A stretch of DNA of 64,000 bases from NCBI GenBank assembly GCA_030390025.1, contig CM059431.1, positions 140,122,001 to 140,186,000 on the forward strand. Reading direction: 5' to 3'. How positions within the stretch are numbered: position 1 is the stretch's first letter; every line of letters begins with the position of its first letter. Made by a program: the position numbers and the translations under genes. The DNA is from Squalus acanthias. Lineage: Eukaryota. Below, one piece after another: positions 18,791 through 64,000 of this stretch. The notes beneath the pieces are model-generated. The model did no database searches. It was not told where the DNA came from and worked only from the letters and a program-made list of their open reading frames with translations.

Positions 18791-18914
18791 GGGCTCAGCA
18801 TGTGACTGAGGACAATCATTTTACACCGGGGATTTCAGGGTTAATCTCACTCCTGGTCTCCACCAGTCTCCCACAGACACATTTTAAAGCGGTTGCGGGA
18901 CAGAAAGCCGGAAA

Positions 18915-33710: not shown

Positions 33711-33884
33711 ATTGGGCAACAAACGGTTCAGTGAGTGAAAATACCGCGCCTTACTGTAAAAAAATAAAAGCATACGGAGTGAGAAAGGATCACATTCTCA
33801 CCCCTGTCTGACTGAACTGCAAATTCTACAATCGGGAGGAGGCGCCGCTGGACCACAATGGATAAAGCCCCAGAGTTGGTCTGT

Positions 33885-34235: not shown

Positions 34236-36519
34236 CCGGCTTTCTGTCCCGCAACCGCTTTAAAATGTGTCTGTGGGGAGACTGGTGGAGACCAGGAGTG
34301 GGTTTAACCCTGAAATCCCCGGTGTAAAATGGACTGTCCTCAGTCACAGTCTGAGCCCTCACTCACAGTATAGCCGCAACCCCGGTGCTGGAGAACATAT
34401 CAGACCGCGGGAAATAGGCTATAGAGAGGAAGAGTAAAGGGAGAAAATGAAGAATAAAACACATAAATGAAGCTTAGAAGCTACATTAATCTTACCTTGA
34501 TACCGCAAGGATTTTCTGTCTCTTTATTTCCGTGTAGATTTTGCGACTTACATCCTTGTTATTTCACTAGAACCGATCATGCAGAAGTTCCTTGTTTGAT
34601 TTGAGCAAGTCACAAATTGTGAATTTGATCTAATCCTTGTTCTGTGAGACTCAGAGCTCCGCCCTCTGTGTGAAAGCTGCTGCCCTCGCTCAGGGTGGAT
34701 TTCAACTCAAACATTCCTCATTGGCGTCAGAACAGGGAGCGGCCTCACTGGTCAAATCAAATCCAACCGGTTTGACGATTCTCTGCCGCTCCAACTGTGA
34801 ACGAAGTTAGTTATAACATTTACTTCATCTCTTGTTCCAGGGAAGTTAAGTAAAACAGAGATTTGCTATAAAATTCTCGGGGCCCTCCCACCTTATGGTA
34901 ATTTGAGTAATTACTTTTACTGCAAAGATCATTAATTAGTTTCCTCCTGTCTGTGTGAAAAGTGGTTTCAGCCTGAACCCGGTTTCCGTCTAAAACATTC
35001 CTGAAGATTGTTTCTCTTTAAAGGGATCAGTCTCTGATTTTTCGGCCAGTTTGACAATAACCGCCTCATTAACATGAATTGATTTCAGACAAAAACACAA
35101 GTCCCTGCTCCATTCTCTCACCTAATTCACAGGCGTTCCTAACTGATTTAAACAGTGATTTCTCGGTTATGCGGCATTTCATTATTATAATTTATCGGGG
35201 ACTAGTGTTATCTCCGACTTTGCTCCGATCGAGTGACGGGTTCGTGTTCAGACCGGCCTCAGGTAACCAGAAGCTGATTTTCCAGGTGCTCGGGACAGAG
35301 CGATAAACGGCCAGTGCGAATGTGTTAACCCTTTACTGAGCTGAACTGTGTGTTGGGTCTGAACTGTTGGTCCCGCCTTTGATCAGTTAAATAAAACTGT
35401 GCTGGACACAAACGGTTCAGTGAGTAAAAGTCCGCACTGAGTTCCAAGAACCAGGTTCCCAGCCCTGTTTACTGAACTGCAAATTCTAACATGTAAAGGA
35501 AGCGCCGCTGACCTTGGCTGGGTTAAATCTCCAGAGTTCGTGTTCCTGCTTTATATCCCACAACCGCTTTTAAATGTGTCTGTGGAGTCCAGGAGTGGGT
35601 TTAACCCTGAAATCCCCGGTGTAAAATGGACTGTCCTCAGTCACAGTCTGAGCCCTCATTCACAGATAAAAGAGACCCAGCCTGCTCATCCTTTCCTGAT
35701 AAGTATACCCTATTTGGAGAAACTACCCGGTGGGGAAATCAAAAAGAGTGGAAATTATGTTAAAATTAGATCGAGGCCATTATGGAGCAAAGACATGAAG
35801 CAATTTTTCACACAAAGCGTAGTTAGAAATCTGGAACTCAGTCTTCAAAAAGATTGGAAGCTGGGACAATTGGATCTCGCAAGACTGAGAAAGGTCAGGC
35901 TTTCTTGCAAAATTTCGAAATATATTTATCTGTTTTGTTGAGACAGCAGGAAATATCGTTGTGAATTGCTTGTGCTTCGTGAGTCCAAATTCACTTCTCT
36001 CAAGAGCGCTCGGGCCCATTGGGAAGGAAGTTATGCTTCCGATGTATAGAACGTTGATTAGTCCCATCGGGAGAACTGCGTTCAGTTTTGGCCATCAGAA
36101 TAATTGACTGGGCAAAACTAGGGCACTTGGAGTTCAATGTGAGCTACTGTGAAGTCATCCACTTTGCATTCAAGAATGCTCCAGCATCAGAAGCTCTGTC
36201 ACAGAACAAGTCTAAAAGGGGTGACCTCAGGGACATCAGAGGGCAAATATCCGCTGGGCTTCATCGATCGTCCGCGAAGGCATGGCGGATGATACACGGA
36301 AATCTTGGGGGTAAATGCCATTTACAGCAGACAACCAGGAAAACCTCCAGAGAATCTACATTGAATTTTTCGTATTATGATCTGAGGGCACGGAGGCAAA
36401 ACTTCAATCAAGTCAGTACAACATGGTGGCGATGCTAGTGGATAGTGGCGAACTTACACACCTCACTGATTTTTTGAATATCTACATCATCCTAATTAAT
36501 ATCACCAATATTAATTGTT

Positions 36520-42400: not shown

Positions 42401-45400
42401 AGATGTATATGATTTAGTAGATGGTGAGAGTGTTATTGTACTGACCAGAGAAGATGTATCTGATTTAGTAGAAGGTAAGGGTGTTATTGTACTGACCAGA
42501 GAAGATGTATCTGATTTATTGATGGTGAGGGTGTTATTGCACTGACCAGAGTAGATGTATCTGATTTATTAGATGACGAAGGTGTTATTGTACTGACCAG
42601 AGAAGATGTATCTGATTTAGTAGATGATGAAGGTGTTATTGTACTGACCAGAGAAGTTGTATCTGATTAAGTAAATGTTGCAGGTGCTATTGTACTAACC
42701 AGAGAAGATGTATCTGATCTACTAGATGGTGAGGTTGTTATTGTACTGACCAGAGAAGATGTTTCTGATTTAGTATATGTTGAAGGTGCTGTTGTACTGA
42801 ACAGAGAAGATGTATCTGATTTTGTAGATGGTGAAGGTGTTATTGTACTGACCGGAAAATTGTATTTGATTTGGTAGATGGTGAAGTTGTTATTGCACTG
42901 ACCAGAGAAGATGTATCTGATTTAGTAGATGGTGAGAGTGTTATTGTACTGACCAGAGAACATGTATCTGATTTAGTAGATGATTTAGGTGTTATTGTAC
43001 TGCCCAGTGAAGGTGTAACTGATTTAGTAGATGGTGAAGGTGCTATTGTACTGACCAGAGAAGATGTATCTGATTTCGTAGATGGTGAAGGTGTTATTGT
43101 ACTGACCAGTGAAGGTGTTTCTGATTTAGTAGATGGTGAAGTTGTAATTGTACTGACCAGAGAAGATGTTTCTGATTTAGTAGATGGTGAGGTTGTTATT
43201 GTACTGAACAGAGAAGATGTATCTGATTTATTAGATGTTGAAGGTGCTATTGTACTGACCAGAGAAGTTGTATCTGATTTAGTAGATGGTAAGGGTGTTA
43301 TTGGACTGACCAGAGAAGATGTATCTGATTTAGTAGATGGTAAGGGTGTTATTGTACTGACCAGAGAAGATGTATCTGATTTATTGATGGTGAGGGTGTT
43401 ATTGTACTGACAGAGAAGATGTATCTTATTTAGTAGATGATGAAGGTGCTATTTTACTGACCAGAGAAGGTGTATCTGATATAGTAAATGATGCAGGTGC
43501 TTTTGTACTGAACAGCGAAGATGTTTCTGCTTTAGTAGATTTTGAAGTTGATATTTTACTGACGAGAGAAGATGTATCTGATCTAGTAGAATGTGTGGGT
43601 GTTATTGCACTAACCAGAGAAGATGTATCTGATTTAGTAGATGATGAAGGTGTTATTGTACTGACCAGAGAAGATGTATCTGATTTAGTAGATGGTGAAG
43701 GTGTTATTGTACTGACCAGAGAAGATGTATCTGATTAAGTAGATGGTGAGAGTGTTATTGTACTGACCAGAGAAGATTTATCTGATTTAGTAGATGGTGA
43801 GAGTGTTATTGTACTGACCAGAGAAAATGTTTCTGATTTAGTATATGTTGAAGGTGCTATTGTACTGAACAGAGAAGATGTATCTGATTTTGTAGATGGT
43901 GAAGGTGTTATTGTACTGACCGGAGAATTGTATTTGATTTGGTAGATGGTGAAGTTGTTATTGCACTGACCAGAGAAGATGTATCTGATTTAGTAGATGG
44001 TGAGAGTGTTATTGTACTGACCAGAGAACATGTATCTGATTTAGTAGATGATTTAGGTGTTATTGTACTGACCAGAGAAGATGTATCTGATTTAGTAGAT
44101 GGTGAAGGTGTTATTGTACTGACCAGTGAAGGTGTTTCTGATTGAGTAGATGGTGAAGGTGTTATTGTACTGACCAGAGAAGTTGTATCTGATTTAGTAG
44201 ATGTTGAGAGTGTTATTGTACAGACCAGAGAAGATGTATCTGATTTAGTAGATGATGAAGGTGCTATTTTATTGACCAGAGAAGGTGTATCTGATATAGT
44301 AAATGATGCAGGTGCTTTTGTACTGAACAGAGAAGATGTTTCTGCTTTAGTAGATTTTGAAGTTGATATTTTACTGACGAGAGAAGATGTATCTGATCTA
44401 GTAGAATGTGTGGGTGTTATTGCACTAACCAGAGAAGATGTATCTGATTTAGTAGATGATGAAGGTGTTATTGTACTGACCAGAGAAGATGTATCTGATT
44501 TAGTAGATGGTGAAGGTGTTATTGTACTGACCAGAGAAGATGTATCTGATTAAGTAGATGGTGAGAGTGTTATTGTACTGACCAGAGAAGATTTATCTGA
44601 TTTAGTAGATGGTGAGAGTGTTATTGTACTGACCAGAGAAGATGTATCTGATTTTGTAGATGGTAAGGGTGTTATTTGTACTGACCAGAGAAGATGTAAC
44701 TGATTTATTGATGGTGAGAGTGTTATTGTACTGACCAGAGAAGATGTATCTGATTTATTGATGGTGAGGGTGTTATTGTACTGACCAGAGAAGATGTCTC
44801 TCATTTATTAGGAGATGAAGGTGTTATTGTACTGACCAGAGAAGATGTATCTGATTTAGTAGATGATGAAAGTGTTATTGTACTGACCAGAGAAGATGTA
44901 TCTGATTTAGTAAATGTTGAAGGTGCTATTGTACTAACCAGAGAAGATGCATCTGATTTAGTAGATGGTGAGGTTGTTATTGTACTGACCAGAGAAGATG
45001 TTTCTGATTTAGTATATGTTGAAGGTGCTATTGTACTGAACAGAGAAGATTTATCTGATTTAGTAGATGGTGAAGGTGTTATTCTACTAACCGGAGAAGT
45101 TGTATTTGATTTGGTAGAATGTGAAGTTGTTATTGCACTGACCAGAGAAGATGTATCTGATTTAGTAGATGGTGAGAGTGTTATTGTACTGACAAAAGAA
45201 CATGTATCTGATTTAGTAGATGATTTAGGTGCTATTGTACTGACCAGGGAAGATGTATCTGATTTAGTAGATGGTGAAGGTGTTATTTTACTGACCAGAG
45301 AAGATGTTACTGATTTAGTCGATGGTGTGGTGGTTATTGTACTGATTAGAGAAGATGTATCTGATTTATTAGATGGTGAAGGTGCTATTGTACTGAACAG

Positions 45401-46675
45401 AGAAGTTGTATCTGATTTAGTAGATGTTGAGAGTGTTATTGTACTGACCAGAGAAGATGTATCTGATTTAGTAGATGATGAAGGTGCTATTGTACTGACC
45501 AGAGAAAATGTATGTGGTTCATTAGCTGGAGCGGGTGTTATTGCACTGACCAGAGAAGATGTATCTGATTTTTTCATGATTTAGGTGTTATTGTACTGAC
45601 CAGAGAAGATGTATCTGATTTAGTAGATGATTTTGGTGTTATTGTACTGACCAGAGAAGATGTATCTGATATAGTAAATGATGCAGGTGCTTTTCTACGG
45701 AACAGAGAAGATGTTTCTGCTTTAGTAGATTACGAAGTTGCTATTTTACTGACGAGAGAAGATTTTTCTGATCTAGTAGAATGTGCGAGTGTTATTACAC
45801 TAACCAGAGAAGATGTAACTGATTTAGTAGATGATGAAGGTGTTCGAACAGAGAAGGTGTATCTGATTTAGTGGATGGTGAGGTTGTTATTGTACTGACC
45901 AGAGAAGATGCTTCTGATTAAGTATATGTTGAAGGTGCTATTGTACTGACCGGAGAAGTTGTATTTGCTTTGGTAGATGGTGAAGTTGTTATTGCACTGA
46001 CCAGTGAAGATGTATCTGATTTAGTAGATGGTGAGAGTGTTATTGTACTGACCAGAGAACATGTATATGATGTAGCAGATGATTTAGGTGTTATTGTACT
46101 GACTAGTGAAGATGTATCTGATTTAGTAGATGGTGAAGGCGTTATTGTACTGACCAGAGAAGGTGCAGCTGATTTAGTAGATGGTAAAGGCCTTATTGTA
46201 CTCACCAGTGAAGATGTATCTGACTTAGTAGATGGTGAAGATGTTATTGTGCTGACCAGAGAAGGTGTATCTGATTCAGTGGATGGTGAAGGTGTTATTG
46301 TACTGACCAGAGAAGATGTATCTGATTTAGTAGATGGTGAAGGTGTTATTGTACTGACCAGAGAAGATGTATCTGATTTAGTAGATGGTGAAGGTGTTAT
46401 TGTACTGATCAGAAAAGATGTATCTGATTTAGTAGATGGTGAAGGTGTTATTGTACTGACCAGAGAAGATGTATCTGATTTAGTAGATGGTGAAGATGTT
46501 ATTGTACTGATCAGAGAAGATGCATCTGATTTAGTAGATGGTGAAGGTGTTATTGTACTGACCCGAGAAGATGTATCTGATTTAGTAGATGGTGAAGGTG
46601 TTATTGTACTGATCAGAGAAGATGTATCTGATTTTGTAGATGGTGAAGGTGTTATTGTACTGACCCGAGAAGATG

Positions 46676-46952
46676 GGCTGGATTTTGTCTTGGGGTCAGG
46701 TTGGGGTCGTGTAATCTGCATTTCGTGTTTCCCCCCCGACTCCAGATTAATGTGGATGAATGATGCAATTTTCACTTAATTGGGCAATTGAGTTCCAGCA
46801 TGTGGGAACCCATGCACCAATTAGTGGTTTCAGTGGGAAAGTCGACTCTGATGATGTCATCATTGCAGGCTGCCTGGTATCAGAGAGGACCTGCCTGGCT
46901 TGCTTTTGATGTGAGTGGACCTGGATGCAAAATATTTGCGGGGGGGGGGCGG

Positions 46953-47017
<65 letters not shown>

Positions 47018-47305
47018 GGTGAGAGAGAGAGAAAGAGAGAGAGGTTTTTTTGCATCCAAGTCCTCTCACAGCAAAGGCCAGGCAGTCTAATACTACGACT
47101 ACCTTCATCACATCTCCGTTGTAATAGTGGACCTGCAGCTGATAGTCAGCTATCCACTTGTGCTCCCGCCAGGTTTCACTGGAGTGTTTCACACCAGGCG
47201 TACTACACGTCAGAAAAGGGTTAAACTAGCTAAAACGTTTCAAAATGGCATTACAGAGCCAATTTAGAGCTTGTTAAGGGCTTTAATGGCCTCTCCCGCC
47301 TCTTG
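46676..47305. mobile_element. Non-autonomous DNA-transposon-like insertion with internal (GA)n microsatellite
   Basis: Interrupts the 51-bp array; begins GGCTGGATTTT like other Harbinger-type ends; internal inverted repeat 46891-46932 / 47048-47086. Confidence 0.55.
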
Positions 47306-47799
47306 GCCAGAGATGATGTATCTGATTTCGTAGATGGTGAGAGTGTTATTGTACTGACCAGAGAAGATGTTTCTGATTTAGTAGATGGTGGGGTTGTTAT
47401 TGTACTGAACAGAGAAGATGTATCTGATTTATTAGATGGTGAAGGTGCTGTTGTATGACCAGAGAAGATGTTTTCTGATTTAGTAGATGGTGAAGTTGTT
47501 ATTGTACTGACCAGAGAAGATGTATGTGGTTTAGTAGATGGTGAGAGTGTCATTGTACTGACCAGAGAAGGTGTATCTGATTTAGTAGATGATTTAGGTG
47601 TTATTGTACTGACCAGAGAAGGTGTATCTGATTTAGTAGATGGTGAAGGGCTGTTGTACTGACCAGAGAAGTTGTATCTGATTTATTAGATGGTGAAGTT
47701 GTTATTGTACTGACCAGAGAAGATGTATCTGATTTAGTAGATGGTGAAGGTGTTATTGTACTGACCTAAGAAGGCGCATCTGATTTAGTAGATGGTGAG

Positions 47800-47900
47800 A
47801 ACAGAATTAACTCCCTCCACGGATGCTGCCTGGCCTGCTGAGTCTTTCCAGCGTTTTCTGCTGTTATTTCGGATTTCCAGCATCCGCAGTATTTTGCTAT
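47800..47900 (+). mobile_element. Short interspersed fragment (probably Penelope-type terminus) inserted in the 51-bp array
   Basis: ccacggatgctgcctggcctgctgagt...gatttccagcatccgcagtattttgct; related fragment at ~39475-39515. Confidence 0.5.
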
Positions 47901-48199
47901 CGTATCTGATTTAGTGGATGGTGAAGGTGCTATTATACTGACCAGTAAAGATATATCTGATTTAGTAGATGGTGAAGTTGTTATTGTACTGACCAGAGGA
48001 GGTGTATCTGATTTAGTAGATGGTGAGATTGTTATTGCACTGACCAGAGAAGGTGCATCTGATTTAGTAGATGGTGAAGGTGCTACTCTTCTCATCAGGG
48101 AAGAAGAATCTATGCTTAATGATATTGAGCTGTTGTTGAAATTGAGAGATGATGTTTCTGAATTAATAGATGATGAAGCTGTTACTCTACTGGCCTGGG

Positions 48200-48960
48200 G
48201 ATGATGTATCCTGATTTAGAGATGATGAACGTGCTGTAGTACTGACCTGGAATGTTGTAGCCTGATTAGTAGATGAGATTGGTACTATATTGAACTGGGA
48301 TAGCGTAGCCTGATTAATAGATGATGATGGTGCTGTATTGCTCTGGGATGGTGTAGTCTGATTTATAGATGATGATGGTGCTGTATTGACCTGGGATGGT
48401 GTAGTCTGATTTATAGAGGATGATGGTGCTGTATTGATCTGGGATGGTGCAGTCTGATTTATAGATGATGATGGTGCTGTATTGATCTGGGATGGTGTAA
48501 ACTGATTTATAGATGATGATGGTGCTGTACTGTCCTGGGATGATGTATTTTGATTTATAGAAGATGTTGGCGCTGTGTAGACCTGGGATGGTGTAATCTG
48601 ATTTATAGATGATGGTGGTGCTGTATTGACCTGGGATGGTGTAATCTGATTTATAGATGATAATGATGGTGTTGTATTGACCTGGGATGGTGTAGTCCGA
48701 TTTATAGATGATGGTGGTGCTGTACTGACCTGGGATGGGGAAGTCTGATTTATAGATGATGGTGTTGCTGTATTGACCTGGGATGGGGAAGTCTGATTTA
48801 TAGATGATGGTGGTGCTGCATTGAACTGGGATGGTGTTGTCTGATTTATAGATGATGATGTTGTTATATTGACCTGGGATGGTGTGGTCTGCTTTATAGA
48901 TGATGATGTTGTTATATTGACCTGGGATGGAGTAGTCTACTTTATAGATGATGAACGGAC
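48200..48960. repeat. 48-bp tandem repeat related to the 51-bp unit
   Basis: gatgatgatggtgctgtattgacctgggatggtgtagtctgatttata units. Confidence 0.9.
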
Positions 48961-49131
48961 TCTAGCACTGTCCTGGGATGTTTTAGACACCGCAAAAGTT
49001 AATGTCAACGCTGAATTTAAAGCCGGAAGCAGCATTGATCTCATAGTAACAACTGATGACTGTTGCATGGATCTACCTGTCAGGGAGGGTGGAAACACAT
49101 TGTTGTTTTCGGTCGATGATGGGGCCTTTGC

Positions 49132-50072
49132 CTAGTTGGAAGACGGAGGCACATTCACACTGTACAAGCTGGGCACACTCGCACTGCTCACGATAGGCAA
49201 AGTCTCACTGGTCTCGATGGGCACAGTCTCACTGTTCACGATGGGCACAGTCCCACTGTGCAAAATGGACATCGTTTCAGTGGTCACGATGGGCACAGTC
49301 TCACTAGTCACGATGGGCACAGTCTCACTGGTCACGATGGGCAGAGCTTCACTGGTCACGATGGGCACAGTCTCACTGGTCACGATGGGCAGAGTTTCAC
49401 TGGTCACGATGGGCACAGGCTCAGTGTTCACGATGGGCAGAGTCTCAGTGGTCACGATGGGCACACTCGCACTGATCACGATGGCCACAGTCTCACTGGT
49501 CACGATGGGTACAGTCTCTCCGGTCACGATGGGCACAGTCTCAGTGGTCACGATGGGCACAGTCTCACTGGTCACGATAGGCACAGTCTCACTGGTCACG
49601 ATGGGCACAGTCTCACTGGTCACGATAGGCACAGTATCACTGGTCACGATAGGCACAGTCTCACTGCTCACGATGGGCACAGTCTTACTGGTCACGATGG
49701 GCACAGTCTTACTGGTCACGATGGACACAGTCTCAGTGGTCACGATGGACATGGTCACACTGGTCATGAAGGGCACAATCGCACTGATCCAAGAATCCAT
49801 AATTGTGGATAAACTGAAAGCCACTAAGGATGCTGTAGAAGTTGGAGGCTGTGCTGTGGAACTGGGGTGTGGACCTGCTCTATCAAGTGAAGATGAGGTT
49901 TCCATTGATGAAGGGTGAATGGGCGATCGAGGCGCAGTTGAACGTCTCATGGACGTGGTTGTACTTTTGATGCGGTGGTTCACAATCCTGGAGTTGATAG
50001 AAAGTTGATTCTGGGATTCGGTGAGCGTTGGCAGCCCATTGGTCGCGGAATGCGCTCTGGTCATAGTTGTCA
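49132..50072 (-). CDS. Cobalamin-binding-family gene exon 7, open part: Ser/Thr/Pro-rich mucin-like tail with 8-aa repeats (SETVPIVT), to stop
   Basis: Strong acceptor tttctcctactttgcacag| at 50073/50072, phase 1, matching the exon 6 donor; in frame with ORF 49132..50175. Confidence 0.75.
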
Positions 50073-50629
50073 CTGTGCAAAGTAGGAGAAACAATGTCAA
50101 TAGATTATTGGAGGCAACGGGCAGTAAAGTTGGACTTGAGCGAAGACGGAAAACTGGGAGAATCGCATTTGCCAACCGTTTTGCAACACGCCTGATATTC
50201 GGTTCTGTTGGAAATAGTGGAATGAATATCGGGGTTTATAAAGAAAGAAACGGGCGACCGATGACATGCCGCCTGTTTTGCGCCCCTGCTCTTGTCGAAT
50301 TTCACCCACAACTTCTGGAGACACGCTCAAAATCAGCGCCTGTGAAAAGTGGAGCTCAGGTACAAACCAACTCTGCATTCCAGTTAGTGTGACCATTGTC
50401 ATATGTGAAGATCCCTGAGGATATCTACATTGGTGAACCTCCCGCTGGGATTGAGGCCAAGCAGATGGCTCAGGGCGTCCAATTATTTCACTTAGAAAAC
50501 TGAGCAAACATAAAGGATTCAGGAAGGTCAAGGTGTGAATGGGTAAAATCCCCACTTCAGTGCTCCTGGCAAATACCCTGGAGAAAATATCATGAAACTG
50601 GACAGTGATTTAAAACTAACAGACGATGA

Positions 50630-50860
50630 ATTGTTATGATCTGGAATGCACTGACTGAAAGTGTGGTGGAAGCAGATTCAATAGTCATTTCAAAGGGGAT
50701 TTGGATAAATATTTATAGAGGAAAACTGCAGGGCTATGGGGAGAGGGCAGGGCACTGGAACTAATTGGATTGCTCTTTCGAAGCGCCGACACAGGCACTA
50801 TGGGCGGAATGGCCTCATTCTACACTGTATCCTTCCAGGATTCATTTCCATTGGCTATTT
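50630..50860 (+). mobile_element. CR1 3' end fragment
   Basis: IWNAL.E.VVEADS...FKG.LD; gggctatgggg 3' UTR. Confidence 0.7.
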
Positions 50861-51080
50861 CTTCTGCATTTTGATTCCTAACCCCATGCGAGTAGCTTCC
50901 CATCTTTACAGCCTGGGACCAGCGCATCCAGGGAATTCTGGAGCTGAGCTTTGCATTCTGGGAACGGAACCTGCCCGATTTTCCTTCCGTTATTTTCGTT
51001 GCAGTTTTTTTTTGGGCCGTGTAACCTTCCCGTCACATTCTCCCTTATTTACCCCGCCTATGCAGCTCTTAAAGCTGAGA

Positions 51081-51269
51081 GGCGTGGTGAAATTCGATAT
51101 GGATGGGGAAGCGACACAGGAGCAATCGCTCTCACCAACCATTATAGACACGCCCGATATTCAGTTCTTTTGAAGTCAATGCGACCGAATATGGGGCGGA
51201 GCGGATATCGGGCGTCTGATGCGACACCGTCCATTTTGCGACCCCGCCAATGTCGAATTTCACCGTCCC
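51081..51269. mobile_element. MITE-like element
   Basis: Terminal inverted repeats ggtgaaattcga (51086) / tcgaatttcacc (51253-51264). Confidence 0.6.
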
Positions 51270-51303
51270 CCATACTTAGTCCGGTCTGTTGCTGTACCCT
51301 TAC

Positions 51304-51490
51304 CTTTATATACAGGACAGGTTATGTTGTTCACGTCCAGGTAACTCTTTCCTCCCAGGGCTATCGCCACCTGTGACATTGTTGTAAGGTTTTCCCAGTT
51401 TCCCCGAGAAATTTCATGCACCATTTTCTGCACAGATTTGGTGCAATTATAGACACGTGAGGTGAACACGTTTATGTTTTCGGCCAGGGC
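51304..51490 (-). CDS. Transcobalamin/intrinsic factor/haptocorrin-like gene, exon 6
   Basis: cag|...|gtaagg, 187 nt, phase 0 to 1; ALAENINVFTSRVYNCTKSVQKMVHEISRGNWENLTTMSQVAIALGGKSYLDVNNITC matches family pattern AL..WNC..I.QG.F.NP...Q..P.L.GKTYLD....C. Confidence 0.92.
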
Positions 51491-51739
51491 CTGGAGTGTA
51501 AAGAAAGTAACAATAATTTTAATATTTAATGTTAGTGATCCGGAGATCTTTCAATCGGAGCACATATGAATTCTGTTTGAAAGCACTGTAAGATAAAGTG
51601 GGGGTCAATGGAAATAAAAATCGGGAGATATTTACAAGGGCTGCGGATTCGCCATCACACATGTTACACCATCGCATGAAGTCAAAATCGACCCCCAGGT
51701 GCGTTCTGATCGGGTACAGTTTAGATTAGATTAGTGTGG

Positions 51740-52295
51740 AGACACCACACTTAGAGTACTGTGAATAGATCTGCTCTGGTTAGACCACACTTAGAGTAGC
51801 GTGCACAGCTCTGTTCTCCATATTACTAAAAAGATATAAAGGCACATCTTGAAGGTGCAATAAAACATTGGCAAGGATGATACCAGAATTCAGTGGTTAT
51901 AACAATTAGGAATGTCTGATCAGGAAAAGAGAAGACTGAGAGGTGAACTAAAAGACGTCTTCAAAATGATGAATGGATTTGATGAGGTTTCGGAGAGAAG
52001 ATATCTCCAGTTGCGGGGTGAGTCCAAAACTAGGGGCCATAAATATAAGATCGCCACTCATAAACCCAACAAAGAATTTAGGAGAAACTTCTTAACTAGA
52101 GAGTGGATAGAAGTTGTAACTCGCTCTCACAAGGAGTAGCAGAGGAGGTGAATAGCAAAGATTGATTTAAGGGGAATCTACATGAAGGAGAAAGGAATAG
52201 AAGGATATGGTGATAGGGTTAGTAGGGCGGGTGGAGCCTCGTGTGGCCCACAAACACACGAAAGGCCTGTTTCTGTACTGAAAATTCCATGTAAA
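51740..52295 (+). mobile_element. Degenerate CR1 3' fragment
   Basis: RPHLE, EKRRLRGEL, KTRGHKYK. Confidence 0.7.
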
Positions 52296-52902
52296 GATTG
52301 TCCTCTTTGAATTTGAAGTCAACTAGTTTCTCAATATAACAAAACCATCCTGTTTACATTGTTTCTCGCCACTTCAGTGTATTGATTTAATGAGCATTGA
52401 GTCATTCGCTTTCTTTTGTGGTAACTTTATCTTTGAGCGATGATGTACAATGGCCAATCTTGAATTAACCGGCCATTGTATACCACGCCCGATTTTCATT
52501 TGCATTGAATCAATGGAAGGTAAAATCGGGCGCCTGTAAATTGGAGAGCAATTGGATATTACCCATTTTACACCTTCACCAAAAGTTAAAATCACCCGTT
52601 CATCAAAAGTTAAAATCACCCCTTAACACTCTTCAAACAATGCCCTCCGCTCCTGCCGAGTTCTATCCCATGAATGGTATCGAGGTGTCTCCGAATCTTT
52701 CAACATGCTGTACTTTGCATTGCTTCACACTGAACGTCATCTGAACACGTTAGGCACCGATACACCAATATCTCAATATCGTTTCTAAGCTCTAATTGTT
52801 TACAGTCTATCGCTTAATGTGGTGTGAAGAAGCTGTTATTTACTAATTGTGCTTAGCTCGAATTAAACTAGAAACCTATTTTCTAATTTCACATCACCAT
52901 AC

Positions 52903-53078
52903 CTGCATGGCCAGCCCTGTACTGCTCAAGCTCCCAATAGGCCCGTCCTCTCTCACTTCACTTAGAATCCGCCTCATTATCCACATTATAGCCTTTGCGA
53001 TGTCAAGCCGAGATCTGCCTCTTGGTTGTTGTGAGTGTATCAGACACCTCAGACTAAGTGCCGCGGTGGCCATTGTAT
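52903..53078 (-). CDS. Transcobalamin/intrinsic factor/haptocorrin-like gene, exon 5
   Basis: tag|...|gtatgg, 176 nt, phase 1 to 0; DTMATAALSLRCL...ILSEVREDGPIGSLSSTGLAMQ matches DT.AMA.LAL.C and DG.IG.IYSTGLAMQ family signatures. Confidence 0.95.
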
Positions 53079-53119
53079 CTACAACACAGGAAACAATTAC
53101 CAACGGTTCATGGAGTAAA

Positions 53120-53445
53120 TTTGATAGGAGGGCCGGTAACGAGAGGACACAGATGTATGATATTGGCAAAAGAATCTGAGGGGAGATGGGGAGTCATTTT
53201 TGCTTTTTTACACAGCGAGCTGTTATAATCTGGAATGCACTGCCTGAACGCGTGATGGAAGCAGATTCAATGGTGACTTTGAAAAGGGAATTTGATATAT
53301 ACTTGATAAGGATAAAAATACAGGGCTATGGCTTATGGGGAAAGAGAATGGTGAGTGGGATTAATTGGTGAGCTATTTCAAAGAGCCACCACAGGTACGA
53401 TGGGCCGACTGGCCTCCTTCTGTAAGTTTGGCTGATTCTATGATA
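53120..53445 (+). mobile_element. CR1 3' end fragment
   Basis: FFTQRAVIIWNALPERVMEADS..TLKREFD..IQGYG. Confidence 0.8.
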
Positions 53446-53689
53446 TCCGAAGCCGACAAGGCAAGAGCGATCCGAGAACCCATTGATGAAGAGACGCTTC
53501 CCAAATTACCACTCGTTTTACTCTCAGCCGGTGTCCAATGGACTCCCAGCACAAGTTTACCAATCACTGATTGCAGCAACACGGCCTTGTCCCGACTACA
53601 GAATTGTGCAAGTCTTAGGTTGGAATTGAATTGGGAGTAATGGGGACAAGACTGAAACGATGAAATGCTTCTTGTAATAATACATGCAA

Positions 53690-53817
53690 GGGGTGAAATT
53701 GCACTTGGGCGGGAACGCAATACAGGCGGAATCGCATTTTACGACCGTTATGGGACCAGGCCCGATATTTACTTCTTTTGGCCGTTTTGCGGCCCCGCCC
53801 AGGTCCAATTTCAGCGC
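53690..53817. mobile_element. MITE-like element (Harbinger-type ends)
   Basis: ggggtgaaattgcacttgggcggg / cccgcccaggtccaatttcagcgc inverted termini. Confidence 0.6.
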
Positions 53818-53926
53818 TGACTCTTCACCAATCGTAACTTGTGAACTGGGGTAACCGCCTTCAAAACTCCATCAAATGGATATTATTGAAACTGTAAAAT
53901 GAAACGTCTTGTCTGCTCAGACACAC

Positions 53927-54082
53927 CTACTGTTAATTCTTTCCCGTGTTGAGCGATCTTCCTGAGATGAGCCCGGATAAAATTATGAATGAGAAAGCCC
54001 GGGACAGGTTCCTCCTCCTGACACAGCGCCAGGATCGCCAGGCTGGCTTCAGTAAAGGCCTTGAGAGAATATCCAGCGTTTT
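53927..54082 (-). CDS. Transcobalamin/intrinsic factor/haptocorrin-like gene, exon 4
   Basis: tttgcag|...|gtgtgt, 156 nt, phase 1 to 1; ENAGYSLKAFTEASLAILALCQ...ELTV(D) matches SLAILALCQ and xSVD family motifs. Confidence 0.9.
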
Positions 54083-54224
54083 CTGCAAATACAGTGACAG
54101 ACTCCAATGTTAGTGATGTGCTCCACATCTGAATAACGGGAACTACAGATGTGAAAATTCCTCCCTAGTTCGTTCCCGATCCTCTCTGTGTGACAGAAAT
54201 CAGGCCAAGGATTTAAATGAATTA

Positions 54225-54520
54225 AATAGAATTGGTGTAGAATTTACAGCACAGAAGGAGGCTATTCGGCCCAACAGGTCTAATTATGCTCCACCTGAGC
54301 CTCCTCCTACCTTACTCACTCGAGTTGCTTACCCGAGGGAGGTATTCCTTTCTCCCTCATGAAATTGTCTAACTTCGCCTTAAATACATTTATACTGTTA
54401 GGTTCAACTTCTTCTGGTAGCAAATTCCACATTCTCGCTACTCTTCGGGTAAAGAGGATTCTCCTGAATCCCCCATTATTTTTAGTAGTGACTCTACAGC
54501 GGACTAATGCTCTCCTGCAT
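54225..54520 (-). mobile_element. CR1 3' end fragment
   Basis: FTRRVARMWNLLP..FKAKLD. Confidence 0.7.
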
Positions 54521-54544
54521 GGCTTTCCAGTCCATATGACCAAT

Positions 54545-55990
54545 CATAGAAACATAGAAACATAGAAAATAGGTACAGGAGTAGACCATTCGGTCCTTCG
54601 AGCCTGCACCACCATTCAATGCGTTCATGGCTGAACATGCTACCTCAGTACCCCATTCCTGCTTTCTCGCCATACCCCTTGATCCCCCTAGTTGTGAGTG
54701 TTATATCTAACTCCCTTTTGAATATATTTAGCGAACTGGCCTCAACAACCTTCTGTGGAAGAGAATTCCATAGATTCACCACTCTCTGGGTGAAGAAGTT
54801 CCTCCTCAGCTCAGTCTTAAATGGCTTCCCCTTAATCCTTAAACTGTGACCCCTGGTTCTAGTTTTCCCTAACATTGGGAACATTCTGCCCGCATCTAAT
54901 TTGTCTAAACCAGTCAGGATTTTAAATGTCTCTATAAGATCCCCCCTCATTCTTCTGAACTCCAGAGGATACAAGTTCAGTTGACCCAATCTTTCTTGAT
55001 ATGTCAGTCCGGCCATCCCAGGAATCAATCTAGTGAACCTTCGCTGCACTCCCTCAATAGCAAGAATGTCCTTCCTTAAGTTAGGAGACCAAAACTGCGC
55101 ACAATACTCCAGGTGTGGCCTCACCAAGGCCCTGTACAACTGCAGCATCACCTCCCTACTCCTGTACTCAAATCCCCTTACTATGAAGGCCATCATTCCG
55201 TTTGCTTTCTTGACTGCCTGCTGCACTTGCATTCCCACCTTCAGTGACGGATGTACCATGACGCCCAGGTCTCGTTGCACCTCCCCTTTCCCTAATCTGC
55301 CACCATTCAGGTAATAGTCCGCCTCTCTATCTTTACCACCAAAGTGGATAACCTCACATTTATCCACATTGTACTTCATCTGCCATACATTTGCCCATTC
55401 ACCCAACCTGTCCAAGTCACTCTGTAGCCTCCTAGCATCCTCCTCATTGTTCACACTGCCTCCCAATTTAGTGTCATCCGCAAATTTGGAGATATTACAT
55501 TTAATCCCTTCGTCCAAATCATTAATATATAATGTAAACAGCTGGGGTCCCAGCACCGAACCCTGCGGTACCCCGCTGGTCACTGCCTGCCATTCTGAAA
55601 AGTACCCATTTACTCCTACTCTTTGTTTCCTGTGTGCCAACCAGTTCTCAATCCACGTCAACACATTACCCCCAATCCCATGTGCTTTAACTTTGCTCAC
55701 CAATCTCTTGTGTGGGACCTTGTCGAAGGCCTTCTGAAAGTCCAAATACACCACATCTACTGGTTCCCCCCTGTCCACCCTATTGGAAACATCCTCAAAA
55801 AATTCCAGAAGATTTGTCAAGCATGATTTCCCTTTCACAAATCCATGCTGACTTGGACCTATCATGTCGCCACTTTCCAAATGGTCTGTTATGACATCTT
55901 TAATAATTGCTTCCATCATTTTACCCACGACCGATGTCAGGCTGACCGGTCTATAATTCCCTGCTTTCTCCCTCCCTCCTTTTTTAAAAA
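54545..55990 (-). mobile_element. Young 5'-truncated CR1 LINE with uninterrupted 427-aa RT/C-terminal ORF, in intron 3 of the gene
   Basis: ORF 54645..55928 with all RT motifs; (catagaaa)n tail at ~54545-54570. Confidence 0.97.
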
Positions 55991-55991
55991 G

Positions 55992-56510
55992 ATGTCATCA
56001 TTGATGTCCAGCTAAATTCTACTATGAGAATTATCACCGGTACGCTTTTAATGACACCAACATCTTGGCTGCCCGTCCTTGCAAACATCACACCAACACA
56101 CCTACGCCACGATTATGCAGTGTCCATAGAAAACAACCGCTACACCAGCAAAGACATGCCAATCCAGGCGGACTTGAACAACCTACTACCAAACAGTCCC
56201 TAATCTAGAAGGCCATCTTGGAGCGTCGCCAAAGCCCTTCGGTGATCTCCTTAATGACCGATGGCTAAATAATTGGAAGAACTGTGACATACGGAATGGA
56301 TTCCTTATAGAGGACCCCACAGTACAACCTGAAGGATCAAACCTTCCTTGCTACCAGTGGACAATCATCAACCGCCTCATAACTGGTCATGGTAGATGCT
56401 GCCATCTTCTCCATTGATGGAAGATTAAAGAATCCCCATCATGCGACTGTGAAGCTCCCGAACAGACCCTGGAGCACATCACTGAGCACTGGAAATTCTC
56501 AGGCAGCGTA
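55992..56510 (+). mobile_element. Vingi/Ingi-group LINE C-terminal fragment
   Basis: DVQLNSTMRIITGTL..TP..WLPVLANI.P.HLR and NRLITGHGRC..LLH*WKIKESPSCDCEAPEQTLEHI zinc-knuckle-like end. Confidence 0.7.
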
Positions 56511-57000
56511 CATAAGAACCTAATTAATAGGAGCAGGAGCTTGACACTTCGAACATACTCCACAATTCAATAAGATCATGGCTGATCTTCTACCTCATCT
56601 CCACTTTCCTGCACTATCCCCATATCCCTAGTTTCATTTAATTTTCAAAAATCTATCGATCTCTGTCTTGAATGTACTCAACGACTGAGCCTCCACAGCC
56701 CTCTTAGGTAGAGAATTCCAAAGATTCACCACCCTCTGAGTGAAGAAATGTCTCCTCATCTCAGTCCTAAATGGCGGACCTCTTATTTTGAGACTGTGAC
56801 CCCTGGTTCTAGACTCCCCAGCCAGGGGTAACATCCTCCCTACATCTACCCAGTCAATCCCTGTAAGAATGTTGTATGTTTCAATGAGATCACCTCTCAT
56901 TCTTCTAAACTCTAGAGAATATAGGCCGAGTCTACTCAATCTTTTCTCATAGGACAATCCCCCCCATCCCAGGAACCAGTCTGGTGAATCTTCGTTGCAA
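56510..57000 (-). mobile_element. CR1 3' fragment
   Basis: ORF 56634..56957: SLEFRRMRGDLIE, FFTQRVVNLWNSLP. Confidence 0.9.
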
Positions 57001-57589
57001 GAAATTCACGCTGTTTCACTGGAGTCTTTGGCTTTGATATCTGATTTAGATATTGAGATTTGACTTGCTTTGCTACTAACATACAAAAGAAGAAGAAGTA
57101 CTGAATACCTTATATTATTGGCCCCTAATTATAGTCTCCTCTTCAAGTGGAAACATCTGTTCTACTTCAACCCTGTAGAAACACTTCATTATTTTAAAAA
57201 CCTCTATTAGCTCACCTCTCAATCATCTCTTTTCCAGATGAAAGAGCCCCAGCCGGTTCAGCCTTTCTTGATAAATAACATAGATAATAATAGATGAATA
57301 AATAAATGCAACAAGGGTTTTATTTCACGGATATCATCATAAATCATTGCCTTTATAAACCAGGAGTCAGCGTTCCGATTCCCTTTAGGCCTGGTGTCAA
57401 TTGGTTCTTTTAAAAAGTGTTGGATAAATATTTGCCCTTTAATGGGTTTGGAGATAATGGGAATAGATACAAACTGTGAGAGTAATTATATTGGTGTTTA
57501 CAGGGACAGATATGAACTGAGAAGGCAGTGGGATTGGAGGTTATGGGGAGCCGCCGAATGTTATGGGAATAGAACCGGAAATTGTTGCG

Positions 57590-58215
57590 ATTAAAGCAGA
57601 CTGAGGTGAGAATGAGGCTGGAGGTTATGGCGGGAGCCACAGATTGGGTGTGATTGGAGGTTATAGGGACAGGTACAGACTGAGATGTGTGTGTGATTGG
57701 AGGTTATAGGGACAGGTACAGACTGAGATGTGAGTGTGATTGGAGGTTATAGGGACAGGTACAGACTGAGATGTGAGTGTGATTGGAGGTTATGGGGGCA
57801 GGAATAGAATGAGATATGAGTGTGACTGGAGGATATGGAGAGAGGTACAGACTGAGATGTGAGTGTGATTGGGGTTATAGGGACAGGTACAGAATGAGAT
57901 GTGAGTGTGATTGGATGTTATAGGGACAGGTACAGAATGAGATGGGAGTGTGATTGGATGTTATAGGGACAGATACAGATGAGATGTGAGTGTGATTGGA
58001 GGTTATGGGGAGAGGTACAGACTGAGATGGGGGTGTGATTGGAGGTTATAGGGCCAGGTACAGTCTGAGATGTGAGTGTGATTGGAGGTTATGGGGACAG
58101 GTAGAGACTGAGATATGAGTTTGATTGGAGGTTATGGAGTGAGGTACAGCCTGAGATGTGAGTGTGATTGCAGGTTATGGGGACAGGTACAGACTGAGAT
58201 GTTCCTGTGATTGGT
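57590..58215. repeat. 43-bp minisatellite (GATTGGAGGTTATAGGGACAGGTACAGACTGAGATGTGAGTGT)
   Basis: Units at 57652, 57695 and onward. Confidence 0.9.
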
Positions 58216-58295
58216 GGTTTTCAGCTTGTGTTTGCTGAAAGATGCCTCTCAATCTCTATGCAAATAACATGCCTAAAGCATGAGTCCACACTTAC

Positions 58296-58466
58296 CTTTA
58301 GAAGATGTTATCCTAGGTATTTGGTGCAATTCACTGTACAGCCTCTCACGGAGCACCTCCACCAAATTCACCTCCTTGTTTCCTGCCGATATCTTGGCGG
58401 AGTTCCGACAAGAGGATCTGAAGGCTAAGATGTAGAAAACCAACTGGTCTATGGGGAAGTGTTCAC
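58296..58466 (-). CDS. Transcobalamin/intrinsic factor/haptocorrin-like gene, exon 3 (not in ORF track)
   Basis: ccgccag|...|gtaagt, 171 nt, phase 1 to 1; GEHFPIDQLVFYILAFRSSCRNSAK...NLVEVLRERLYSELHQI matches GQL.L.ILAL.SSC..P family motif. Confidence 0.9.
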
Positions 58467-59389
58467 CTGGCGGCAGAGGAACAAACGAGATTCAGTTTGT
58501 TCTGACTGGGTCCATCAATAACTAACTGGTTAGTGATTATAAATTCCTCTTCTACACTCTGAAGACTTGTATTAATATTCTTCCTTATTCTAACTCTCAA
58601 AAACGATTCAAAGTGCTTCAAGTGTAATAAATTATTTGGAAGTGCAGACATTCTTGTTATATCGACCAATTCGGGAGCCATTTTGTGGACAGCAATATCC
58701 CACAAATAGCAATGAAGTGAATAGCCAGGGAACCAGTTTTAAATTCTTAACCGGCGACACGGTAAATAGATTAACTGCTAATGTATCTCATTAGTACTTG
58801 TGGCATCTTGTGTCCAATTAGTTGTCGAGTTTGTCTATGAAAGATAAATGGCTGCATTTCATTGGCTGTGAAGCAAAGGCACTACAGAAATGTAAGTTTC
58901 TCCCCCTTCACTCTCCTCTCTCTTTAAACTACTTTGGGTGTTAGCTGGGGAATAAATGTTGTCCAAGACCCCGGCAGCACTCTCCCTTCTTGTTCCAATA
59001 AAGCCGTGGCATCTTCAAATTCCACAAGAAAAGATTCAGGGGATAATTTTAGATTTAAACGATGTTGTAAAATAACCGACACCAAAATGGCCTCCGATTA
59101 TAGATCCCGCCCGATGTTCACCTCCATTGGAAAGGAAAATCAAGCGTGGTGTAAAAGGGCGTCTGCTGCAATTTAGAGCAAGGGGCAGGGTAATGATTTC
59201 TGATTTCAAAACAATGAGAGGACAAGAAGTAAAACCTACGTGCAGGATGGGCGATATAGGGTTTAGGTGGAAGAACAGAGGAATGTTTAGAGCTGCGAAA
59301 TAATTTCCATCATAGTATCATGACCAAAGCTGCTGCAATAAATGACAGCTCGGCCCATTCACCTGAGGGGAGAATTCCAGCTAGAAGTC

Positions 59390-59680
59390 TCCCTCCCTCC
59401 CTCTCTTCATCTTCCTCAGTATGTGTCTGTTTCTCTCTTTCTCCGTCTCACTGTTTCTCTTTCTCAAACACACACACATACACATACACACAGAAACGTA
59501 CAGACTCGGATATATATGCACCTACATACACATATAAACACATACAGACACGTATACACACAGAGAAACACATATGCATACAGAAGCACAGACACACAGA
59601 AACGCAGAGACATACACACACACAATCGCAAATAATCCCACAGAAAGATACACACAAACACACGCAAACATATACAGAAA
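59390..59680. repeat. CT- and CA-rich low-complexity sequence
   Basis: Degenerate dinucleotide runs. Confidence 0.8.
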
Positions 59681-60367
59681 CTTCAATGGCACATTGCTGC
59701 AAATTAATCCCTGGGATCTTGATTCAAATGGTTGAGAAATTGTGTAATGTAATAAAGTGAACTGCACTGGGGAAAAGAAGGAGAATCGCATGAGGTGTGT
59801 TAACTTTCAACATTGGCTCTCACAAAATAGGCGCTATCGACAGTCATATTAGCTGCTATTTTTAAATTAACCTATGTATTTTAAATGGACGAGGACCTCT
59901 ATTCGGAACATTGGAATTGCTGGGGCGGGTAAAGACCAAGGTGCATCTAGTTCTTCTTCTACCATCCATGTAGTCTCATGATACAATGACAATGGGATTG
60001 TTGTCTAATCATAGTAATCAGTCTCTATAAATCAGTCTACATCAGACACAGACATGAGGCGAGGAATACCCGGTGCTGGAGAGCTTTGTGAACCATCGGT
60101 CCAAAATCACCTGTTCCTCTCAAGCACGCTACACTGACCATGTGTAACATCTCAAATTACACATATACTCTATCCCAAATGTTATGATCTGATATCAAAT
60201 AGAGCAATATGACATGAACGGGCTACAAGTTGGTTCATTTGTATCATGGGGCTATTCTTAGGTTCCAATTTCCTTCATTAACAATAGTTTGCCAAACACT
60301 TAACCTGTCAGTAAAAATAAAGATTTAATCCAGATACATCCACATTAACTAATAGATTAAAGCTTAC

Positions 60368-60550
60368 CTGCCCCCACCTTTCTAACAACCGCCTCACTCA
60401 GCCTTCGGAGAATGTCTTGTTCACTCTGTAGATCATGCTCACTCCCCAGGCGTAGGGCAATGAAAGCCCCGGGGTCTGGCTCCACGGACAGATCACTCGG
60501 TTTCCTCTCTATACTACGGATAAGTGATTTCTGCTGATTATCTGGAGCCG
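60368..60550 (-). CDS. Transcobalamin/intrinsic factor/haptocorrin-like gene, exon 2
   Basis: ttccag|...|gtaagc, 183 nt, phase 1 to 1; APDNQQKSLI...EPDPGAFIALRLGSEHDLQSEQDILRRL matches .PNPS..I.LRL family pattern. Confidence 0.88.
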
Positions 60551-60689
60551 CTGGAATCCACAACCGAATTATTAATCCACTCGCGTGTAAGGAACATTAA
60601 GATAGCAGTAACACTTAAAGAGATTGAGGATAATCAGAAGGCGCATGTGGCAGGTGAACACAACATATGCACATACAGTAAGAACATGT

Positions 60690-61595
60690 ATTGTAGTAAA
60701 CAGTAAGGACGATAGTAGCAGACTTCAGGAGGACACAGACAGACTGGTGCAATGGGCAGTCACATTGTAAATGACATTCAATGCAGAGAAATCTGAAATG
60801 GTGCATTTTGAATGAAGAATGAGGAGAGTTAATATAAACCAAATAGTACAATTGTATTAGGGGCGCAGGAAGAGAGAGACCTCGGGTTCACGTACACTAA
60901 TCTGTGACGGTGGCAGGACTTACTGACAAATCTTTAAAAAAAACATGACGGGATACGTGGCTTTCCAAATAGATGCACAGAGTAGAAAAGCAAAGAATTT
61001 GCGGCAAAGGTTTATTAATCATTAGTTATGCTTCTGTTAGTGCATTGTGACCAATCCTGAGCAACACACTTTAGTCAAAGCCTTGGAGAGGGTGCAGAGG
61101 AGATTTACCGGAATGGTAGCAGGGATGAGGGACTTCAGTTATGTGGAGAGACTGATGAAGCTGGGATTGTTCTCCTTAGCGTAGAAAAGGTTAAAGGGAG
61201 ATTTAATAGAGATGATCAAAATCATGAAGAGTTCTGATAGAGTAAATAAGAAGAAAGTGCTTCCACTGGCAGGAGATTCAGTGTCAGAGGACACACACTT
61301 AAAGTAACTGGCAAAAGAACCAACGGGGGTGGGGGGGGGGGGGGGTGGAAATAGGAGATTTAAAAAAAAATCATCAATGTTGCTGCGATCTGGAATGCAT
61401 TGCCTGAAATGGTGATAGAAACATATTCAATACTAACTTTCAAAATGGGAATAGGATGAGTACATGAAGAGGAAACGGGGCAGGGATTTGGGGAAGAGCA
61501 GGGTGGGTGGGACTAATTACTCTTTCAGAGAGCAGGCAGAGGTACGGTGGGCCGAATGGGCTCCTTCTGCACTTAAGGTTCCATGATTCTATAAT
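60690..61595 (+). mobile_element. Degenerate CR1 3' portion
   Basis: LERVQRRFTGM..GMRDFSYVERL.KLGLFSL; IWNALP; attctat tail. Confidence 0.8.
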
Positions 61596-61687
61596 TCTTT
61601 GATTCTAAATTACGATAAAAACTCAGCTAAAGGATAAACATCAGGTTTAGGTTAAACACTGGGAACCAAACAACAAATCGCACTTAC

Positions 61688-61757
61688 TGTATTGTTGGGA
61701 TGTTGCCGGGTACGAGGCACTGAAGAGCAGGAGTGTGAGGGTCATCACCGGGGGCAT
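61688..61757 (-). CDS. Transcobalamin/intrinsic factor/haptocorrin-like gene, exon 1 (signal peptide)
   Basis: acaATG MPPVMTLTLLLFSASYPATSQQY, 70 nt, phase-1 donor gtaagt; alternative ATG at 61745. Confidence 0.7.
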
Positions 61758-62580: not shown

Positions 62581-62691
62581 AACCCATTGTAGTTCTGAGT
62601 TAAAACAAAACTGCAGCAAATATCAGGGTGAATTGTTCTGATTCATGGGGCTGCAAGAAAGTGGGGATTGAGAATCTGGATTTAAAAGCAG

Positions 62692-62739
62692 CGCCCGAAC
62701 AGGGACTTGAACCTTGAGTCTCAGATTAAAAGTCTGATG
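62692..62739 (-). pseudogene. tRNA-Lys-TTT: 5'-truncated tRNA-Lys(UUU) relic
   Basis: Minus strand CATCAGACTTTTAATCTGAGACTCAAGGTTCAAGTCCCTGTTCGGGCG resembles the vertebrate tRNA-Lys3 anticodon arm to 3' end; TTTT 4 nt downstream; D arm and 5' acceptor strand missing. Confidence 0.85.
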
Positions 62740-63034
62740 AGATGTTAAACCGTTGCCTCGCCTGCCCTCCCCGGTGGACCCTGAAGACCCCACCGCAATA
62801 TTGGAAGAGGATCAGGGGCTTAATCGAATCAGCCGCCTGTTAAAGTCTGCACCCGATTTTCCATCCCATTCCTTTCAATTTTAAGGAAAATCAGGCATCT
62901 AATTCCATATCGCTCGTTTAGACCATCACCCGGAATTCAAATTCATGTGTACAAATTCCTCTTGGAGGTCAGCTCTACAGGGGCACTATCGCATCGGCTG
63001 CCTGTTGTACCCGTCGCTTCATATTCAATTCTAG

Positions 63035-64000
63035 TGAAGCCAATGGAGCTCAATATCAGGTGGGGAGTGTGGGGGCGATAATGGGACTGAATATCAGGCG
63101 GGGAGTGTCGGGCGGCCGATAATGGGACTGATTATCAGGCGGGGAGTGTAGGGGGGGCGATAATGGGACTGAATATCAGGCGGGGAGTGCAGGGCGACAG
63201 ATAATGGGACACAATATCAGGCGGGGAGTGTAGGGGGGGTGAAAATGGGACTGAAAATCAGGTGCAGAGTGTAGGGCAACTGATAATGGGACAGAATATC
63301 AGGCAGGGTATGTAGGTGCGATAATGGGATTGACTATCAGGCGGGGTGTGTAGGGGCGATAACGGGACTGAATATCAGGCGGGGAGTGTAGGGGGGACGA
63401 TAATGGGACAGAATATGAGGCGGGGAGTGTAGGGCAGCTGATAATGGGACAGAATATCAGGCGGGGATTGTACGGGTGATAAAGGGACTGAATATCAGGC
63501 AGGTAGTGTAGGGGTGATAATGGGACTGAATATCAGGCGGGGATTGTAGGGGCCGATAATGGGAGTGAATATCAGGCAGGGAGTGCAGGGGCTGATATTG
63601 GGACTGAATATCAGATGGGGTGTGTAGGGCAGCCGATAATGGGACTGAATGTCAGGCAGTGAGTGTGGCACGGCTGAAAATGTGACAGAATATCAGGTGG
63701 GGAGTGTAGTGCGGTCGATAATGGGACTGAATATCAGGCGGGGAGTGTAGGACGGCCGATAATGGGACAGAATATTAGGCGGGGAGTGTAGGGGCCGATA
63801 ATAGGACTGAAAATCAGGCGGTGAGTGTAGGGGGACCGATAATGTAACTGAATATCAGGCGGGGAGTGTAGGGCAGTCAATAATGGGACTGAATATCAGG
63901 CGGGGAGAGAAGGGGCCGATAATAGGACTGAATATCAGGCAGGGAGTGTAGTGCAGCCCATAATGGGACTGCATATCAGGCGGGGATTGTAGGGGGGCTG
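63035..64000. repeat. ~38-42-bp minisatellite (GATAATGGGACTGAATATCAGGCGGGGAGTGTAGGG...)
   Basis: Tandem units running to the window end. Confidence 0.93.

Follow-up and report, generated by a model that had tools for sequence, protein, structure and literature searches.

A gene that joins half of a vitamin B12 carrier to a mucin-like tail, and stops in the middle of that tail, raises the question of what such a protein could do and whether this copy of the gene still does it. The locus lies in a window of 64,000 nucleotides from Squalus acanthias (assembly GCA_030390025.1, contig CM059431.1, positions 140,122,001 to 140,186,000), where seven exons on the minus strand, between window positions 61757 and 49132, would encode a protein of 627 aa. 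A previous reading, based on the letters of the window only, asked whether this is a truncated but selected protein or a young pseudogene. The question was well chosen, but that reading missed that the lack of a beta domain is an old architecture of the family and that the terminal TAG only shortens the mucin tail. The locus belongs to an elasmobranch family with an alpha-domain head and a mucin-like tail, recognised by its gene anatomy, its clade, the loss of a B12 motif, its several copies and the absence of a beta domain from the window.

Exon 1 (61757-61688, 70 nt) contains the ATG and a leader that by eye resembles a signal peptide, and is followed by a GT donor; it terminates in the codon of Tyr23, where relatives carry a cysteine. 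The alpha domain is distributed over exon 2 (60550-60368, 183 nt), exon 3 (58466-58296, 171 nt, with Cys104), exon 4 (54082-53927, 156 nt, with Cys162 and KAFTE at the position of the TNYYQ motif), exon 5 (53078-52903, 176 nt, with Asp194 retained, Cys205 and Asn243 replaced by Ser) and exon 6 (51490-51304, 187 nt, with Cys268, Gln292 and Cys310), in which it ends. These five exons all match consecutive parts of Pfam Cobalamin_bind (PF01122), with E values from 0.005 to 3e-10 each, and are 63, 61, 69, 77 and 77% identical, respectively, to a Mustelus relative. Among solved structures intrinsic factor was the best match for exons 5 and 6, the exon 5 match being weak. The coding part of exon 7 (50072-49132, 941 nt) supplies a 313-aa tail, its junction with exon 6 being suggested by the acceptor, the phase and a Narcine model. 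The seven exons translate openly with one stop at the very end, all six introns are GT-AG, and the sum of 1884 nt (627 aa plus stop) without internal disruption agrees with the sequence-only reading. Splicing of the exons in this way in vivo is a prediction, least certain at the exon 6-7 join.

An alpha domain with a short mucin tail and no beta domain was the earlier description of the product, and each part of it was confirmed. Residues 315-627 consist of 46% Ser+Thr+Pro and are organised in 8-aa repeats, as in the repetitive Pro/Thr/Ser domains of mucins. They include a 24-bp array of about 27 units (49148-49786, minus strand) with no indels and no stops; the lack of a stop in its 212 codons is a weak sign, as just one of 72 possible one-step changes yields one. 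A beta-domain hidden Markov model (HMM), based on 59 of the 95 proteins fetched and searched against 3015 six-frame pieces of the window, did not find the beta domain (PF14478) anywhere in the 64 kb, including the approximately 39 kb downstream of the tail (best E 3); the alpha HMM, used as a control, recovered five of five exons (E 1e-4 to 2e-15). A further weak alpha match at 35121-34993 (E 0.036) was dismissed as chance, as it sits in a unit repeated within the window. The domains typical of gel-forming and membrane mucins (VWD, CysD, cystine knot, SEA) gave no Pfam match in exon 7 or in two open reading frames of the tail. No membrane helix was indicated in the 627-aa protein, the peak 19-residue hydropathy being 1.74 and located inside the repeats.

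The closest sequences found are a near-identical pair of Mustelus asterias models (XP_078087635.1 and XP_078087636.1, 67% identity over 307 columns), both annotated as “cobalamin binding intrinsic factor-like”. They resemble the head of the window gene in being alpha only, but have no mucin tail, stopping at or soon after exon 6, and have doubtful N-termini and the first cysteine kept. With the Mustelus model as query, a full HMMER search returned 86 matches, of which the best non-self one was Narcine bancroftii XP_069792302.1, “mucin-2-like”. This automatic NCBI model has the same order of parts as the window gene, an alpha domain followed by a long tail rich in Thr, Val, Pro and Ser, without beta domain or DUF4430. 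It differs in that its tail is an open frame of 627 aa in which no regular arrays of 24, 48 or 51 bp were noted, and in that the first cysteine is kept; it is a prediction, not a studied protein. A partial alpha domain with a tail similar to that of the window gene is also present in a Chiloscyllium model (GCC19399). In a quick maximum likelihood tree of 75 of 104 proteins, from which short and duplicate rows were excluded, the window gene, the two Mustelus models and the Narcine model formed one clade (Shimodaira-Hasegawa-like approximate likelihood ratio support 100) on a long stem (0.96), nested in the TCN1/GIF group (91). Alpha-only elasmobranch models adjoin this clade as sister, with a support of 90 that was not starred. 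Since the beta-less state spans sharks and rays (Mustelus and Narcine), it predates the TAG and is not its product. All relatives are automatic models, and among the 95 fetched proteins the 36 without a beta match surely include many incomplete ones. The word-index searches were insensitive (1 of 10 candidates, 1 of 2765 and 3 of 7999 scored); the last of them covered lengths of 652-2000 only, longer relatives being invisible to it.

Other members of the superfamily help to place these proteins. CBLIF (2PMV, 3KQ4), TCN1 (4KKI) and TCN2 (2BB5) share with the window gene the leader and the PF01122 alpha barrel, of whose six core cysteines it has five; unlike them, the window gene is beta-less and multi-copy, has TNYYQ replaced and has a linker exon expanded into a mucin-like tail. 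Tcn3 of the little skate (Lopes-Marques et al., PMC4350170) is likewise a divergent, elasmobranch-specific family member. It differs in that all three skate carriers have two domains and, in the accessible part of that article, no mucin tail is mentioned, the comparison being by description only. Hypanus XP_059841370, Hemitrygon XP_072907805 and Pristiophorus UPI00398F79C3 resemble the window gene in having an alpha without a beta domain, but keep a TDYDQ/TDFYQ motif and have no mucin tail. These models, of about 320 aa and with TDxxQ retained, may be either a second beta-less lineage or incomplete. Heterodontus XP_067874885 has two domains and a linker extended by a 7-aa Pro/Ser/Thr repeat, which may illustrate how such a tail originated. 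No description of an alpha-plus-mucin protein was found in the literature searched, which included few subscription papers, and a term search of the available text of PMC10532229 gave no mention of cobalamin or transcobalamin.

The head is predicted to form the N-terminal alpha6-alpha6 barrel (PF01122) of vertebrate B12 carriers. The predicted fold of the Mustelus relative (predicted local distance difference test score 85) matches intrinsic factor, transcobalamin (TC) and haptocorrin at template modelling scores of 0.68-0.72, intrinsic factor being the best. The alpha-side B12 motif is altered throughout the clade. TNYYQ is replaced in all four rows (KAFTE in the window, KTFNE in Mustelus, KVLTE in Narcine), and Asn243 and Tyr245 are also replaced in these four rows. 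Asp194 and Gln292, which we take to be B12 contacts (numbering checked), are retained in the window copy and both changed in Narcine. According to PMC4350170, the TNYYQ motif hydrogen-bonds the corrin ring. Human intrinsic factor likewise deviates from TNYYQ, and motif loss alone therefore does not exclude binding. With regard to the missing domain, the consulted parts of three papers state that the primary cobalamin (Cbl) site lies in the beta domain (PMC3331988), that Cbl binds the beta domain first (PMC11107200) and that purified TC-alpha with CD320 contained no Cbl (PMC5599065). The family would thus probably not consist of B12 carriers, and the window protein is likely to bind B12 poorly; the sequence-only reading had expected the latter, and the clade-wide loss of TNYYQ and the absence of beta from the window point the same way. 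Two observations weigh against this view: the retention of Asp194 and Gln292, and the ability of isolated alpha and beta domains to bind Cbl, reported in PMC11107200 too. Across the alpha domain, 44 two-domain references share 54 conserved columns, of which the window copy keeps 40, Mustelus 39 and Narcine 33.

The TAG at 49132-49134 (minus strand) had been read as a nonsense change, and contigs of public sequencing runs show that it is real and derived. Four of 17 public runs (X2, X3, X5 and X10) were compared over 48925-49180, the codon itself being covered in X2, X5 and X10. It reads TAG in one of ten contigs and AAG (Lys) in the other nine, namely five in X2, the single contig of X5 and all three of X10, which carries another species label; X5 belongs to another study, and as only about 55% of it was read, its lack of a TAG contig is uninformative. 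One X2 contig, TAG included, has no differences across 49104-49180, and on this ground assembly error was rejected as the origin of the TAG; its first letter lies 30 positions ahead of the variant base, exactly as expected of the arm of a graph bubble, which is one letter less than the bridging rule of the tool requires. X2 is possibly the source sample and hence no independent individual. The same run contains four different contigs over 49159-49180, and a pair of versions compared over 48979-49101 shows 6 differences in 123 bases. Since two alleles cannot account for four versions from a single sample, the gene is a member of a multi-copy family, with the TAG in a minority copy; contig depth is not usable as copy number. 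The stop is young, because contigs identical across 123 bp continue into AAG. It had been proposed that the TAG be confirmed in reads, which the exact contig does, and that a sense codon there would refute it; the latter test cannot refute it, because its sister copies carry a sense codon.

Beyond the TAG the frame stays open and Ser/Thr-rich for 64 codons, to a second TAG at 48937-48939, in keeping with the earlier observation of more such sequence in the same frame. The first part is a unique spacer (48955-49131, minus strand), which the other species retains with no listed stop or gap. Its 39 other listed differences include no new stop, a weak result given that about two were expected, and comprise 11 synonymous and 28 non-synonymous changes (neutral 26% and 70%), so that no constraint is visible, at little power. 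A 48-bp array of 16-aa units follows (48198-48954, minus strand), with the second TAG, a CAG to TAG change, in its first unit and a frameshift near 48200. It is succeeded by a 51-bp array (39957-48085, minus strand) of more than 130 copies of a 17-aa Ser/Thr/Pro unit. The former tail would end in a stretch (39895-39956, minus strand) that has no in-register stop before a TAA at 39897; a GT near 39910 could serve as a donor, and AATAAA occurs at 39758 and 39550. The periods of all three arrays (24, 48 and 51 bp) are divisible by 3 and their translations in register are Ser/Thr/Pro-rich, from which it follows that exon 7 was formerly a coding tail of approximately 10 kb; the TAG would then leave 313 aa of a tail that had about 3300.

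The 9 kb of former tail past the stop carry some 20 lesions, and frame lesions all lie downstream of the TAG, as had been noticed before. In the 51-bp array, 33 listed indel pieces were clustered by context into about 14 distinct frameshifts, a compensating pair and the edge of an insertion not being counted, and there are ten in-register stops of four types. The tail also contains two non-repeat insertions, one of about 90 bp (47810-47896) with no second copy within the window and one of about 610 bp (approximately 46690-47300) with a TC microsatellite. One 1-bp deletion recurs in identical context at six places and two other deletions at two places each, so the lesions are not random read errors. 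Assembly error was rejected for the tail as a whole on the basis of the two insertions and the shared deletions, although individual homopolymer indels could be errors.

The evidence on whether the window copy still works is divided. Its frame is intact, as the earlier claim of an intact reading frame had it, but its head is not fully so: the first conserved cysteine, which Mustelus and Narcine share with 30 of the 36 two-domain references, is Tyr23 in this copy alone. The window copy thus has five of the six core cysteines, all of which its relatives carry, and lacks the full set of three disulfides; with pairing as in rat TC, Cys268 would be left without a partner. This change, the equally private Ala94Val, the young stop in a minority copy and the redundancy of sister copies suggest decay, and we consider the chances about even that the gene is under relaxed selection and heading to pseudogene, maybe still transcribed. 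A number of results speak against decay and for a possible, if less probable, working short form. Such a form would be secreted, 627 aa long and glycosylated on its 313-aa tail; selection would have kept its head while lesions shortened the tail, and its free Cys268 might link chains. All 12 splice dinucleotides are canonical, the 1881 nt of coding frame up to the TAG hold no frame lesion, and in exons 1-6, which encode the folded domain, Cys23Tyr stands without any frame or splice lesion, the TAG merely shortening the tail. The chance that all lesions fall downstream is 0.03-0.04 if they are uniform (counted low, at 17 lesions; grouping by context gives about 22) and 0.03-0.12 using just the two nearest lesions. 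The end branch of the window gene is short (0.17), and there is no surplus of private changes: with Narcine as outgroup the window copy has 14 unique changes to 37 in Mustelus, and with Pristiophorus 13 to 11, in neither case a rate increase, and the 40 conserved alpha columns that it keeps compare with 39 in Mustelus. Tail length, moreover, varies widely among relatives. Besides the points already named for decay, the working form is opposed by the possibility that gene conversion with sister copies keeps the head clean, and the uniform-rate test ignores both this and the faster change of arrays.

Two further explanations concern the family and the gene model rather than the state of this copy. 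The family might still handle B12, the alpha-mucin closing over B12 that is bound to another protein, with a beta domain only, and so acting as a mucus-tethered trap. When TC or intrinsic factor is divided into its alpha and beta domains, these do reassemble on Cbl (PMC5599065 and PMC6257451), teleosts have beta-only proteins (PMC4350170), the fold is preserved in the Mustelus model, and the window copy has its two retained residues. We nevertheless regard a trap of this kind as improbable, given the clade-wide loss of TNYYQ and of Asn243 and the further changes at Asp194 and Gln292 in Narcine; no elasmobranch beta-only partner turned up, and no search was aimed at one. A join of exons 6 and 7 that is never used seems very improbable as well. 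The product would then be an alpha domain alone, about 330 aa long, by read-through of intron 6, or would continue in exons beyond the window, and the repeat block would be an unrelated satellite. Both Mustelus models, which run counter to an inherited tail, end where this predicts, and read-through of intron 6 meets a stop after 14 codons. Exon 7 has, however, a good acceptor in the correct phase, its three arrays are Ser/Thr/Pro-rich in the exon 7 frame with periods divisible by 3, a similar tail exists in the Narcine and Chiloscyllium models, and the 39 kb downstream are without a beta exon.

The rest of the window is rich in repeats. Fragments of long interspersed nuclear element (LINE) type with RVT_1 matches occur at 54645-55994 (minus strand; in intron 3, where the frame is open for 449 aa), 4132-5088 and 14004-14912 (both plus), with further RVT-like pieces near 56634-57005 and 32831-33700, and a broken transposase piece (DDE_Tnp_4, E 1.6e-9) at 8271-8764 (minus). 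A unit of about 1.3-1.6 kb is repeated several times at approximately 90% identity across 16267-21177 and 26538-35666, and 16267-21117 is an inverted copy of 27098-32333. Many GC-skewed minisatellites with periods of 21-43 bp occupy 24-1795, 5032-7868, 11764-12659, 22456-27744, 57641-58219 and 63052-63998; the long open frames in them are artefacts of the repeats. A stretch at approximately 62690-62740 (minus), some 1 kb before the start codon, has a by-eye likeness to what we take to be the 3′ half of tRNA-Lys, which ARAGORN and Rfam did not confirm; neither scan gave any match in the window.

The proposed explanation is a shark-and-ray family derived from the TCN1/intrinsic-factor branch of the B12 carriers, in which the signal peptide and alpha barrel would have been retained, the beta domain lost and the linker exon grown into a long Ser/Thr/Pro repeat tail. 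Its products are most likely secreted, O-glycosylated proteins of mucus or another exocrine fluid, with the barrel as a compact globular head for a partner other than B12 and the tail extended. The family is multi-copy, with turnover, and the window copy has acquired a recent private stop and a private loss of a disulfide partner, the rest of its tail having decayed. A more far-reaching version is, in our opinion, unlikely as a whole: undescribed, expanding elasmobranch secreted mucins, whose head has turned from B12 to another ligand, be it a microbial product, a receptor or a separate beta-only protein, with birth and death as in an innate-defence family and the window copy as a selected short-tailed form using its free cysteine for cross-linking.

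In B12 carriers the alpha barrel is familiar as one half of a clamp. A beta-less alpha barrel that is kept across sharks and rays, with its corrin motif replaced, on a mucin-like stalk and in several copies, implies a second function of the fold. The family would be a type of mucus protein without a description in the literature searched, and through it the capabilities of an alpha domain on its own can be tested directly. The window copy matters less than the family, whose turnover it chiefly illustrates.

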